From the IMG/VR virus record IMGVR_UViG_2751185958_000012: a DNA stretch of 6,929 nucleotides; one strand, given 5' to 3'. Within the stretch, counting starts at the first letter, position 1. Each line of letters begins with the position of its first letter. This DNA is from a virus (lineage: Duplodnaviria > Heunggongvirae > Uroviricota > Caudoviricetes). Below are positions 2,795 to 3,494 of the stretch, one piece after another. A program made the translations under genes and the position numbers. Below the pieces are notes generated by a model, which made no database searches, was not told the DNA's origin, and was given only the letters and a program-made list of their open reading frames with translations.

Positions 2795-3446
2795 GTATTA
2801 TCCGGCGGTGTTTGAAGCAGAAGCTTTTAATTGCCCTCACTGCGGTGTATATGCCCGTCAGTTCTGGCGTAGTATGTATGGTAATTCGAATGTGCTTGCG
2901 GTCAAATCAACTGAGTTCCGAATGTCAACATGCTCTCATTGTGGTGAAGATGCCTATTGGTATCAGGGCAACATGTTGATCCCTGCGGCTGGCAATGTTG
3001 AACTCCCAAACCCAGACATGCCCGATGACTGCAAGTCAGACTATATGGAAGCTAGAAGCATCATTAATCTGTCTCCTAAAGGCGCAGCAGCACTCCTTCG
3101 TCTTTGCCTCCAAAAGCTAATGGTCCACTTAGGCGAACCGGGAAACAACATTAATGCTGACATTCGGTCACTCGTCCAGAAAGGACTACCTGTACGCATT
3201 CAGCAGGCAGCAGACATCTGTCGTATCGTTGGCAATCAGGCGGTCCATCCAGGAGAGATTAGCCTTGATGACGACCCACAGTTGGCACATGGTCTCTTTA
3301 AGCTGTTGAACATTATTGTCACTGAGCAGATTACCAGACCGAAAGAAATTGAGGCTATGTTCCAGAGTATGCCTGAAGGTCCACGCCAAGGTATTGAGAA
3401 TCAGGACAGACAGGCGAGGGAACAGCAGCAGGCTGCTAATGAATAA
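2787..3446 (+). CDS. Hypothetical protein, 219 aa: N-terminal four-Cys zinc ribbon plus C-terminal DUF4145-like helical domain
   Basis: Two CxxC pairs (CPHCG at 16-20, CSHCG at 49-53). C-terminal segment [22 protein letters not shown]...[16 protein letters not shown]...[13 protein letters not shown] fits the DUF4145 pattern as I recall it (conserved R-x2-GN-x-A-x-H). AAGGAG RBS at 2771-2776. ATG 2787 overlaps the integrase stop (ATGGCTGA), implying translational coupling. Domain call is from memory and needs an HMM search. Confidence 0.75.
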
Positions 3447-3465
3447 AACCCACACTATAGGGGGA
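3443..3465 (+). promoter_or_regulatory. T7-class (single-subunit phage RNAP) promoter-like sequence P1: ATAAAACCCACACTATA|GGGGGA, +1 at 3460
   Basis: The -7 to +3 core CACTATAGGG matches T7/T3/K11-type promoters. Positions -12 to -9 (ACCC) resemble the T3 specificity region. Overlaps the stop codon of the upstream CDS. Confidence 0.55.
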
Positions 3466-3471
3466 AGGGGG

Positions 3472-3494
3472 ACTAAACTATCACTATAGGGAGA
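3472..3494 (+). promoter_or_regulatory. T7-class promoter-like sequence P2: ACTAAACTATCACTATA|GGGAGA, +1 at 3489
   Basis: The 14-mer TCACTATAGGGAGA is identical to T7 consensus positions -8 to +6. The upstream specificity region (-12 to -9, ACTA) differs from T7 (CGAC). Lies 29 bp downstream of P1 on the same strand. Confidence 0.7.

Follow-up and report, generated by a model that had tools for sequence, protein, structure and literature searches.

Promoters for two T7-like phage polymerase classes in an enterobacterial island: a probable infection sensor of a putative phage satellite

T7-like phages are strictly virulent and serve as workhorses of molecular biology and phage therapy. T7 replication starts at phage promoters, and Saito et al. 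are said to have shown in 1980 that initiation depends on them. In the T7 sequence, promoters phi1.1A and phi1.1B are used by the same polymerase, the distance between them is 75 bp, and the 83 bp that come immediately after have 72% A+T. Plasmids with a T7 origin and a T7 concatemer junction were reportedly packaged into T7 particles by Chung and Hinkle in 1990. Among satellites, the cf-PICIs (e.g. EcCI2) are larger than the island described here; they rely on temperate helpers for tails alone, and their genes include those for a portal, a protease, connectors and a small terminase. P4-like satellites (P2), PLE (ICP1) and PICMI (virulent vibriophages) are small, integrase-bearing, helper-dependent islands with anti-phage cargo, PLE and PICMI exploiting virulent phages. 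A literature search returned no T7-type satellite, no island bearing phage promoters and no satellite induced directly through promoters of the helper RNA polymerase.

The stretch of 6,929 nucleotides analysed here (the window) contains an integrated island that resembles each of these systems in part. It shares with the T7 primary origin two close, co-directional promoters for a phage polymerase, placed 5′ of an apparently geneless stretch, and a reliance on helper enzymes, but its promoters belong to different classes, their spacing is 29 bp and varies among relatives, and a structured RNA in sequence of about 50% G+C follows. As in the Chung and Hinkle plasmids, phage promoters and concatemer-junction sequences stand on non-phage DNA; those plasmids were laboratory constructs, whereas the islands are natural and mobile, and in them the attachment site divides the junction. 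Compared with the cf-PICIs, the island is 6.4 kb long, encodes just a capsid protein plus a candidate scaffold, and carries promoters and end mimics that point to virulent T7-like helpers; no portal, protease, head–tail connector or small terminase gene was found when all open reading frames were scanned with Pfam and PHROGs. The core genes of P4-like satellites, PICIs and PICMI (alpha primase, sid/psu/delta, a repressor with primase-helicase, terS, alpA) are likewise absent from Pfam, PHROGs and PADLOC scans. PICMI has alpA with a primase next to fis, whereas the island sits at tRNA-Gly or a reductase gene, and its induction, unlike that of P4-like satellites, PLE and PICMI, would go directly through helper RNA-polymerase promoters.

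Since the two promoter classes differ and the island looks like a satellite of T7-like phages, the promoters are most likely infection sensors. The tandem pair would probably act as a dual-specificity helper-polymerase sensor of an integrated T7-phage satellite, infection by either phage group activating the same transcription unit.

Promoters and polymerase specificity

The window has exactly three copies of the 10-mer CACTATAGGG, each on the + strand (3453, 3482 and 4038). With up to one mismatch the 10-mer has four matches in the window against 0.33 expected, a number reached in one of 200 shuffles. The exact copies lie in 23-bp promoters (−17 to +6) of the T7 group (Studiervirinae), with CACTATAGGG around +1 and class-specific bases at −12 to −8. 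P1 (ATAAAACCCACACTATAGGGGGA, 3443–3465, + strand) and P2 (ACTAAACTATCACTATAGGGAGA, 3472–3494, + strand) have their +1 G at 3460 and 3489, 29 bp from start to start; the span 3443–3494 given in the original prediction therefore starts precisely at −17 of P1 and ends at +6 of P2, and its description of two tandem, co-directional promoters of phage type, 29 bp apart, was confirmed. That description overlooked the difference between P1 and P2 at the specificity positions −10 to −8, as well as a third promoter of the P2 type, P3 (ACTAAACTATCACTATAGGGACC, 4028–4050, + strand, +1 at 4045), which heads the gene module.

P2 and P3 belong to the Kayfunavirus (K1F/CR44b) class. P2 has no mismatch to a promoter of Citrobacter phage CR44b and lies in a 25-nt exact match to CR44b phi10, and P3 has one mismatch to a CR44b promoter. 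P1 is of the SRT7/Vibrio-N4 class, its core from −13 to +3 being identical to the SRT7 promoter class. Outside this core it has five mismatches to the nearest SRT7 promoter (A/T swaps at −17 to −14 and changes at +4/+5), so that its true cognate polymerase may be that of an unsampled phage, or P1 may be weak. No sigma-70-like promoter and no intrinsic terminator was found in 3300–4450. With phage-class promoters and no host-type promoter, the region should stay silent until a phage polymerase arrives, which agrees with the earlier proposal of an element built for the RNA polymerase of a helper phage.

The two classes are separate in the phages themselves. Escherichia phage SRT7 has 11 copies of the P1 core ACCCACACTATAGGG, Vibrio phage N4 has many and CR44b has none; the P2 core has several matches per genome in about 20 contigs of Kayfunavirus size (~40 kb) and none in SRT7. 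Of these two types, CR44b has only the one named after it, in ten promoters, and SRT7 likewise only its own, in 11; the two classes were never found together in one phage genome. The polymerases also differ at base-contacting positions of the specificity loop, where N748/R756/Q758 of T7 correspond to N/N/Q in CR44b and D/R/A in SRT7. As judged from these sequences, P1 and P2 match the RNA polymerases of two different groups of T7-like phages.

The comparison was extended to a set of 29 distinct loci, taken from E. coli, Shigella, Citrobacter, Leclercia, Enterobacter, Buttiauxella and metagenomes. Almost all of them have the K1F-type promoter, which is conserved in position and orientation. Its upstream partner is of the ACCCAC, ACCCTC, CCCCTC or GATTAT type, is a second K1F copy, or is missing, several relatives having only one promoter at the P1/P2 position. 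The ACCCTC type is the promoter of Cronobacter phages GW1/Dev2 and Citrobacter phages SH4/SH5. Owing to a poly-G run of variable length, the start-to-start spacing at this first cluster lies anywhere between 22 and 36 bp. At the P3 position relatives have one or two promoters, often the class pair of the first cluster, which is repeated there in L002, L097, L101, L146, L151 and L153. In L092, which represents a sister island type, two K11-type promoters flank a canonical T7 promoter. The upstream promoter of the pair would appear to be an interchangeable module that decides to which additional phages the element responds. The promoters of one metagenome locus, L134, are both K1F-type and in tandem, so a tandem pair may also belong to a single class, which counts against the dual-specificity reading.

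Island genes and non-coding RNAs

The island begins at a tRNA-Gly(CCC) gene (979–1052, + strand; ARAGORN, Rfam), the 3′ end of which forms the left attachment repeat with the attL core TCGATTCCCTTCGCCCGCTCCA. L002 is an intact copy: its attR, 22 nt that repeat the tRNA-Gly 3′ end, is found 6,397 bp further on, and the island at this tRNA measures ~6.4 kb. E. coli 4600 (NZ_CM128560) and Leclercia NCTC13032 are strains in which the island is intact. In the window attR is absent, having been lost to an insertion sequence (IS). The tyrosine integrase gene (1187–2794, + strand) was recognized by Pfam Phage_integrase (E = 3.8e-18) and its RefSeq relatives are annotated as site-specific integrases. 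An integrase and flanking attachment repeats thus bound a discrete element, as in satellites. The relatives are spread over six enterobacterial genera, and at least two sites serve for integration: tRNA-Gly in some islands, a reductase gene in others.

The accessory cargo of the window's island is the abortive-infection RNase RAZR/PD-T7-4 (2787–3446, + strand), with a zinc ribbon and a DUF4145 (HEPN) domain. The PADLOC PD-T7-4 model was matched at 209 of its 211 positions (E = 2.7e-102), and Pfam DUF4145 was found as well. The zinc-ribbon cysteines C16/C19/C49/C52 and residues R146/H154 are present as in published RAZR (PMC13017515), and the gene is a full-length family member with catalytic R146/H154. 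RAZR is reported to abort T7/T3 infection on meeting the phage portal (PMC13017515). Publications on RAZR/PD-T7-4 treat it as a single-gene system and note only the integrase overlap, with no description of the promoter array, RNA or capsid module. The gene is missing from related islands that keep the promoters, the non-coding RNA nc1 and the capsid gene.

Downstream, a Rha-family regulator gene (4365–5336, + strand) is interrupted at 4395–4634 by an internally deleted IS629-like remnant with an AAC target duplication. In the resulting chimeric frame (4449–5336) Pfam placed HTH_Tnp_1 at residues 1–64 and Phage_pRha at residues 70–160; the gene is intact in L002 (242 aa). A small conserved open reading frame of 63 aa follows (5338–5529, + strand), with 80–96% nucleotide identity in relatives and no family match in Pfam or PHROGs. 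A 163-aa protein (5650–6141, + strand) resembles the DUF6971 protein of the L092-type island (BLASTP E = 6e-10). Its C-terminal half is charged and helical and its gene always lies directly upstream of the capsid gene; it may be a scaffold. The capsid gene itself is reduced to a 5′ fragment of the first ~84 codons (6231–6482, + strand), cut by an IS3-family insertion sequence (6483–6929, − strand; Pfam rve, E = 2.5e-32). Comparison with intact L002 and other loci indicates that this IS took out the remainder of the capsid gene, the left mimic of a terminal-repeat boundary and attR. The window copy is thus defective, with the Rha gene split and the capsid gene and right end lost, and with promoters, nc1 and RAZR intact.

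The complete capsid protein of the island (328 aa) has the HK97 fold of major capsid proteins, with N-arm, E-loop, spine helix and P and A domains. A first AlphaFold2 model from a shallow alignment (14 sequences, at least 69% identity) was unusable (pLDDT 45.6) and gave way to one made after exhaustive profile searching. With the 328-aa and 163-aa proteins as queries, Pfam, PHROGs and PDB sequence searches were uninformative, the sole family matches arising through one homologue with an Ig-like domain. Scans of the open reading frames with Pfam, PHROGs and PADLOC revealed no portal, terminase, tail, polymerase, primase or other replication gene; as in satellites, most virion and replication genes are missing, and only the capsid protein and the candidate scaffold were found.

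The stretch of about 350 nt after P2 had been described as lacking a convincing gene, which is correct and understated: no open reading frame with a conserved frame exists from 3495 to the Rha start at 4365. A 60-aa frame (3846–4028) was considered as the target of P1/P2 and was rejected because its reading frame is not conserved, another frame being found in strain 4600. The segment downstream of P1/P2 corresponds to nc1, a conserved, predicted non-coding transcript of ~540 nt (3489–4027, + strand) defined from alignments of nine and 29 loci. It keeps 82–92% identity across genera, has no conserved open reading frame and is retained in islands with another integrase and no RAZR. It is a core part of the element. 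An Rfam scan of the window (E up to 1) returned only the tRNA and no family for nc1.

Within nc1 a branched hairpin domain (3638–3719, + strand) is indicated by covariation. In the alignment 98.6% of its cells are paired and ten of 26 pairs are changed on both sides, against zero to two when the partners are slid; the covariation score is 0.455 against at most 0.136. The hairpin exists in two alleles. G–U pairs occur only in the + sense, which is that of the promoters. Folded from one sequence, the domain shows no unusual stability (z = −0.97); what supports the structure is covariation and not energy. A covariance model of this nc1 domain matches other island types and gave no match in CR44b, in SRT7 or in the T7 ends. 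No complementary matches for antisense pairing with CR44b were found for nc1 or for the second leader. A blastn search of 3380–4394 against 50,697 phage genomes had no matches, so that the non-coding region, promoters excepted, is not derived from phage. The second leader (4262–4364, + strand) is a conserved structured 5′ segment just 5′ of the ribosome-binding site of the first gene; it is ~90% conserved even where that gene differs, and its stem UGCGUCCUG/CAGGGUGCA (RNAalifold) has compensatory variants.

Boundary mimics, replication and alternative readings

The right end of the T7-group terminal repeat, with the pause motif of the concatemer junction, is GTCTCTATCTGTAT in CR44b and GTGTCCCTATCTGTTAC in T7. 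A mimic of this boundary, GTCTCCCTATCTGTAT, lies inside the integrase gene (1694–1709, + strand) and is the only one of the two boundary motifs retained in the window; intact family members have a left mimic near attR and a right mimic inside or beside the integrase gene. The right motif is kept in two unrelated integrase contexts and in different reading frames (SVSLSVL and GSPYLYG). Mimic type tracks promoter type. The K1F-type islands resemble the ...CTATCTGTAT terminal-repeat end of CR44b and match its junction by blastn exactly on the repeat boundary (E = 4e-4). The T7-promoter island L092 carries CTCTGTGTCCCTATCTGTTA, an exact T7 20-mer within 35 bp at 88.6% identity (E = 6.7e-6), and also shares CAAAAATCTGAG...TA/T.T.A.AG with T7 (slash, boundary). 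Similarity of the left mimics is short and degenerate (70% over 115 bp). The mimics may be packaging signals suited to the terminase of the helper.

Replication of the island by helper machinery is plausible because the island itself lacks replication genes, T7-type packaging needs concatemers and terminal-repeat mimics are present. The more specific proposal that P1/P2 form a transcription-primed origin like phi1.1A/phi1.1B, helper transcripts priming the helper DNA polymerase, is compatible with a sensor role and would answer the need for some helper-usable origin in an element that lacks a replication gene, yet bears mimics that make sense only on excised concatemers. The dependence of T7 initiation on phage promoters fits as well, and AT-rich sequence occurs at a distance: in L092 a stretch of ~180 bp has 72% A+T (85% at its 60-nt peak) ~230 bp 3′ of the promoter array, and in the window's island the 60-mer with the highest A+T content (70%) falls inside nc1, at 3841–3900, beginning 350 nt downstream of the pair. 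By analogy, the structured transcript of ~540 nt 5′ of a possible start might recall the RNA II primer of ColE1. The likeness to the T7 pair itself did not hold up. Tandem promoters for a single polymerase are not present, P1 and P2 being of different classes whose specificity loops differ; the spacing varies, several relatives make do with one promoter, and the pair is duplicated at the second cluster, where an origin would not require it. Directly downstream there is no AT-rich block, the G+C content being 48–54% over 3450–3800, including the 300 nt after P1/P2, against 72% A+T over 83 bp in T7. Promoters aside, no similarity to the origin regions of T7 or CR44b was seen. We regard such an origin as rather doubtful.

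It is unlikely that the island serves defence only, the phage promoters expressing interference factors (a decoy capsid protein that would spoil the helper's head assembly, a regulator, an RNA) upon infection with no packaging or transfer by phage. RAZR/PD-T7-4 is a proven anti-T7 abortive-infection RNase, expression gated by the phage polymerase would be an economical trigger, and public assemblies contain integrated copies of the island with no excised or encapsidated form. However, the RAZR gene lies upstream of the promoters and is absent from related islands with promoters, nc1 and capsid gene; it is hard to see what phage-matched mimics of both boundaries, in differing reading frames, would do in a purely defensive island; and integrase, att repeats and the range of genera and integration sites indicate mobility. 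Contigs of ~6.4–6.8 kb with the capsid gene or nc1 had been considered as excised circles and were rejected, being either pieces of chromosome or integrated copies with their breaks at the att repeats. Simple reinforcement, two tandem promoters for the same polymerase with more transcription as their only purpose, has precedents in the K1F-type pair of L134 and in the same-class tandem promoters of T7, and is nevertheless very improbable here: in the window and in most relatives the two promoters differ at −10 to −8, the positions that set specificity, and the two classes do not co-occur within a phage genome. That the motifs match by chance, or are inert remains of a T7-like phage acquired by recombination, is hardly credible and already contradicted by the comparative data. 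Only the short length of the motif speaks for such readings; against them stand three exact 10-mers where ~0.3 would be expected even with one mismatch, identities of 23–25 nt to phage promoters, the same positions and orientation in 29 loci of several genera, and no other similarity to phage DNA.

Proposed satellite life cycle

If the promoter pair is a sensor of infection, the RNA polymerase of a phage from either group would fire P1 or P2, and the first product would be the conserved, structured nc1 RNA of ~540 nt. Read-through together with P3 would then give the Rha-type regulator, the small open reading frame, the DUF6971-like protein and the HK97-fold capsid protein. Excision would join both boundary mimics across attP, and the excised element would be copied into concatemers by helper replication proteins, possibly from the sensor promoters themselves. 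The helper terminase might cut the concatemer at the mimic sites. The packaged ends are predicted at ...TA/TCTAATA (slash, cut) and after CCCTATCTGTAT, with a terminal repeat of ~0.9 kb spanning attP. Packaging would perhaps take place into small capsids of the satellite's own capsid protein, built on the helper portal, and tandem cassettes would widen the range of helpers.

We tentatively suggest, as a possibility to be taken seriously, that virulent T7-like phages have satellites, of which these islands would be the first on record: silent elements with swappable promoter cassettes, which would be replicated by the helper, cut at the mimics and packaged in a capsid of their own. If so, direct reading of the helper polymerase would be a new mode of infection sensing for a mobile element. 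The promoter cassettes would be an 'address label' from which helper range could be predicted by sequence, and natural orthogonal pairs of phage promoters and minimal packaging signals would become available for engineering. The old in-vitro rules of the T7 origin and the concatemer junction would become testable in a natural setting. The reported abortion of T7/T3 infection by RAZR seems at odds with a satellite that parasitizes such phages, unless the helpers escape it or non-helpers are its targets; in a satellite, RAZR/PD-T7-4 would be housed in a mobile parasite of the very phages that it senses.

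Promoter classes in the window

The sequence CACTATAGGG occurs three times in the window, at 3453, 3482 and 4038, always on the + strand. The predicted transcription starts of the corresponding T7-group phage promoters P1 (3443-3465), P2 (3472-3494) and P3 (4028-4050) are 3460, 3489 and 4045, respectively. The tandem arrangement of the original prediction, 29 bp between P1 and P2, was borne out by the starts at 3460 and 3489, both on the + strand. No sigma-70-like promoter or intrinsic terminator was found in 3300-4450.

About 20 viral contigs of 39-40 kb each contain several copies of the P2/P3 core AACTATCACTATAGGGA; these are Kayfunavirus phages, e.g. 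CR44b and ST31, with the promoter consensus GACTAAACTATCACTATAGGGAGACC. P2 is identical to the CR44b phi10 promoter over 25 nt, and a single mismatch separates P3 from a CR44b promoter. In Escherichia phage SRT7 (Foetvirus) and Vibrio phage N4/ICP3 the repeated promoter has the P1 core ACCCACACTATAGGG. The two classes do not occur together in either CR44b or SRT7: CR44b has ten promoters of the P2/P3 class, and SRT7 has 11 of the P1 class. The role of the specificity-loop residues is established for the T7 and T3 polymerases, and in T7 they read positions -8 to -11; T7 N748/R756/Q758 are replaced by N/N/Q in CR44b and by D/R/A in SRT7. Judged by their sequences, P1 and P2 are promoters of different kinds. 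P1 is imperfect outside -13 to +3, with A/T swaps at -17 to -14 and G at +4 and +5, and its actual cognate may be an as yet unsampled relative of SRT7. The P1-P2 spacer (3463-3472) is a G-run of variable length, GGGGGAAGGGGG in the window and up to 12 consecutive G in the related locus L089.

Promoter clusters in relatives and the replication-origin reading

The comparison covered 29 distinct loci found in E. coli, Shigella, Citrobacter, Leclercia, Enterobacter, Buttiauxella and metagenomes. Two promoter clusters were always present. Cluster A lies right behind the DUF4145 stop codon, and cluster B follows some 550 bp further on. Nearly every locus has a K1F-type promoter in cluster A. The promoter upstream of it is of the ACCCAC type (as in the window), the ACCCTC type (that of the Cronobacter phages GW1/Dev2 and the Citrobacter phages SH4/SH5), the CCCCTC type or the GATTAT type; at locus L134 it is a second K1F-type copy, and it is missing at L090, L133, L142, L096, L067 and L098. 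The start-to-start spacing in cluster A ranges from 22 to 36 bp, drifting between loci because the poly-G run between the two promoters varies in length. Cluster B repeats the same class pair (ACCCTC type, then K1F type) in the intact copy L002 and at L097, L101, L146, L151 and L153.

A sister island, L092, lies at the same tRNA-Gly (E. coli 51008369SK1) and is of a type that appears common in other E. coli genomes. Its cluster A has two K11-type promoters, the first of them AATTAGGGCACACTATAGGG, with the canonical T7 promoter TAATACGACTCACTATAGGGAGA between them, all within about 100 bp; cluster B is of a further type, and a fourth promoter reads AATTAGGTAGCACTATAGGGAGA. These promoters and the AT-rich stretch that follows them occupy L092 5013-5590.

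This pattern would be expected if each transcription unit had one promoter per activating phage polymerase, and a structure needing two promoters as such would not give it. The relatives show the tandem partner to be an exchangeable part, and we conclude that dual specificity would explain the tandem layout of P1 and P2.

It had also been proposed that P1/P2 form a transcription-primed replication origin like that at phi1.1A/phi1.1B of T7. That this pair, or any of the three promoters, primes replication in addition is considered unlikely, at roughly one chance in four. T7 replication starts at phage promoters, which counts for such a role, and an element without a replication gene needs helper-driven replication into concatemers. 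AT-rich DNA is also present: beginning about 230 bp beyond its promoters, L092 has a 180-bp stretch at 72% A+T (peak 85%) that includes the motifs ACTTAAAG and GATTAATTAAAAG, and the most AT-rich 60-mer of the island (70%) lies at 3841-3900, inside the non-coding transcript nc1. However, the specific analogy with T7 was not supported. The phi1.1A and phi1.1B promoters are of one class, 75 bp apart and followed immediately by 72% A+T, whereas the island pair is of different classes, and the 300 nt after P1/P2 have about 50% G+C, with no AT-rich block directly downstream, and encode a structured RNA. The spacing of the P1/P2-type pair drifts, single-promoter relatives exist and the pair recurs at cluster B. 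AT-richness is itself a weak origin test for the phage group of CR44b, since its own phi1.1 region has only 59.5% A+T.

Conserved RNA elements

The nc1 region (3489-4027) is conserved at 82-92%, equal to the coding genes. The absence of a convincing gene after P1/P2 was confirmed, with no conserved reading frame in the approximately 540 nt up to cluster B. RNAalifold, run on 26 sequences, predicted a branched hairpin at 3638-3719. It occurs as two alleles, about equally frequent among the loci, that differ at about ten base pairs, all changes being compensated. Among 11 distinct sequences 98.6% of cells are paired, and 10 of 26 pairs are changed on both sides, compared with 0-2 for slid partners; the covariation score reaches 0.455 versus at most 0.136. 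This evidence is good but not overwhelming, because two alleles represent few independent events. G-U pairs are found in the + sense only, which fits transcription of this RNA from P1/P2. A covariance model of the domain matched other island types, L092 weakly (18 bits), and gave no match in any of the phages searched.

A second conserved, covarying element comprises the last 100 nt or so before the first gene (about 4262-4364), just before the ribosome-binding site. It is about 90% conserved whether the first gene encodes Rha, KilA-N or an unrelated 161-163-aa protein, and covariation was seen at some stem positions.

Island organization and mimics of phage genome ends

The left part of the window, before tRNA-Gly(CCC) (979-1052), contains an actS/nlpD-like lipoprotein gene (LysM and M23 domains) and, in its first 95 bp or so (1-95), an insertion-sequence end that looks like an IS1 terminus. 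The first island gene encodes a tyrosine integrase (1187-2794) and is followed by the DUF4145 gene (2787-3446; 219 aa), some 920 bp in which no ORF is conserved, a gene of the Rha family, two ORFs of 63 and 163 aa and a larger gene of which the first 84 or so codons are left. The sequence is cut off at 6482 by an IS3-family element (6483-6929; rve domain), which truncated the capsid gene and removed the right end of the island. The Rha gene is split at 4395-4634 by an internally deleted IS629-like remnant (left approximately 230 bp joined to the last approximately 9 bp) flanked by a 3-bp AAC target duplication, giving an in-frame chimeric transposase-HTH/Rha ORF (4449-5336). The island copy of the window is defective. 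So many IS sequences point to a genome of the Shigella kind. A 17-bp perfect tandem duplication, GCTCAAAACTGAGCAGT x2, within the Rha coding sequence (4745-4778; L002 14111-14144) is kept in relatives.

Among 5,426 complete E. coli genomes, 170 contain the same island at an identity of at least 80%, and a more sensitive search raised the number to 383; examples are O26:H11 11368 (L001) and strain 4600 (L002). The copies seen in public assemblies were all integrated. The 22-nt tRNA 3' end is repeated 6,397 bp downstream in L002, so that the element is about 6.4 kb long.

The DUF4145 protein is a full-length PD-T7-4 (PADLOC E 2.7e-102) and retains the four zinc-ribbon cysteines and R146/H154. 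Its gene and the integrase gene share 8 bp at the integrase stop, and at the other end the DUF4145 stop codon overlaps position -17 of P1; the first PD-T7-4 paper stated that the system 'often overlaps an integrase gene', with nothing further on context (PMC9519451). Under its present name, RAZR, PD-T7-4 is described as a HEPN RNase with a zinc finger that responds to the portal rings of T3, T7 and other phages by becoming active (PMC13017515). RAZR senses T7-type portals, yet it is carried on an element seemingly dependent on T7-type phages, and parasitism of such phages is hard to square with the action against T7 and T3 that is reported for RAZR.

The 163-aa protein, encoded just upstream of the capsid gene, has a homologue in the DUF6971 protein of L092, and the charged helical tail of the 163-aa protein suggests a candidate scaffold. 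Directly after the capsid gene a stable hairpin and a U-rich run are present in all three island types (L002 16596-16640; L092 8593-8635; L098 9005-9040) with differing stem sequences, followed by a hydrophobic ORF of about 28 codons; in T7 the T-phi terminator occupies the corresponding position behind gene 10. No genes for replication, portal, terminase or tail proteins were found in the island. Islands with an unrelated integrase and without RAZR retain the promoters, non-coding RNA, DUF6971-like gene and capsid gene, which form the core, the integrase and RAZR being exchangeable.

As read here, the island works like a satellite, all of its functional steps being those that we infer from sequence. 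RAZR is published, and neither T7-class promoters nor HK97 capsid proteins are unusual components. Full-text literature searches turned up no account of satellites of T7-like phages, and none of chromosomal islands with arrays of T7-class promoters. The island differs from cf-PICI, PICI, P4-like elements and PICMI in the features that define each. Induction through helper polymerase promoters, together with end mimicry, would be new for a satellite.

A left-boundary mimic, GAC(T/A)GAAAAATGTGAGAnnnTA-TCTAATA, about 18 nt and then CCCCATAGCC, lies between the capsid gene and the attachment site attR in every intact island (L002 16775-16840, GACTGAAAAATGTGAGAnnnTA-TCTAATA...CCCCATAGCC) and is absent from the window. 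It aligns with the CR44b concatemer junction GACTAAAAGTTTGAGACCACA|TCTCACAG...CCCCATAGGCC (E 4e-4), the sole non-promoter match in a 6.4 kb x 39 kb comparison, which falls exactly at the annotated terminal-repeat start. T7 and SRT7 have AAAAATCTGAGTGACTA|TCTCA(C/A)AG...TTCCCCCATAGG at the same place, and L092, with its T7 promoter, has the more T7-like CAAAAATCTGAGGGGGTATGTAATAG...TTCCCCCCGTA.

The right end of the T7 repeat, including the concatemer-junction pause motif, is CTCTCTGTGTCCCTATCTGTTACAG. The L092 integrase gene contains CTCTGTGTCCCTATCTGTTA, an exact 20-mer of the T7 right end (35 bp at 88.6%, E 6.7e-6), and K1F-type islands contain GTCTCCCTATCTGTAT, which resembles CR44b GTCTCTATCTGTAT and lies in the window at 1694-1709, within the integrase gene. 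In islands with an unrelated integrase these nucleotides are in another frame (GSPYLYG versus SVSLSVL); since the frames differ, the motif is kept as DNA and not as protein.

The two mimics are in the 'wrong' order in the integrated island. Excision would place them on either side of attP, giving a pseudo terminal repeat of about 0.9 kb, which would fit packaging from concatemers by a T7-type terminase but is no proof of packaging. The segment from attL to the integrase start (1053-1186), which would fall within this repeat, contains several CTTAAAG and CCTAAGG heptamers that recall the short repeats of T7-group terminal repeats.
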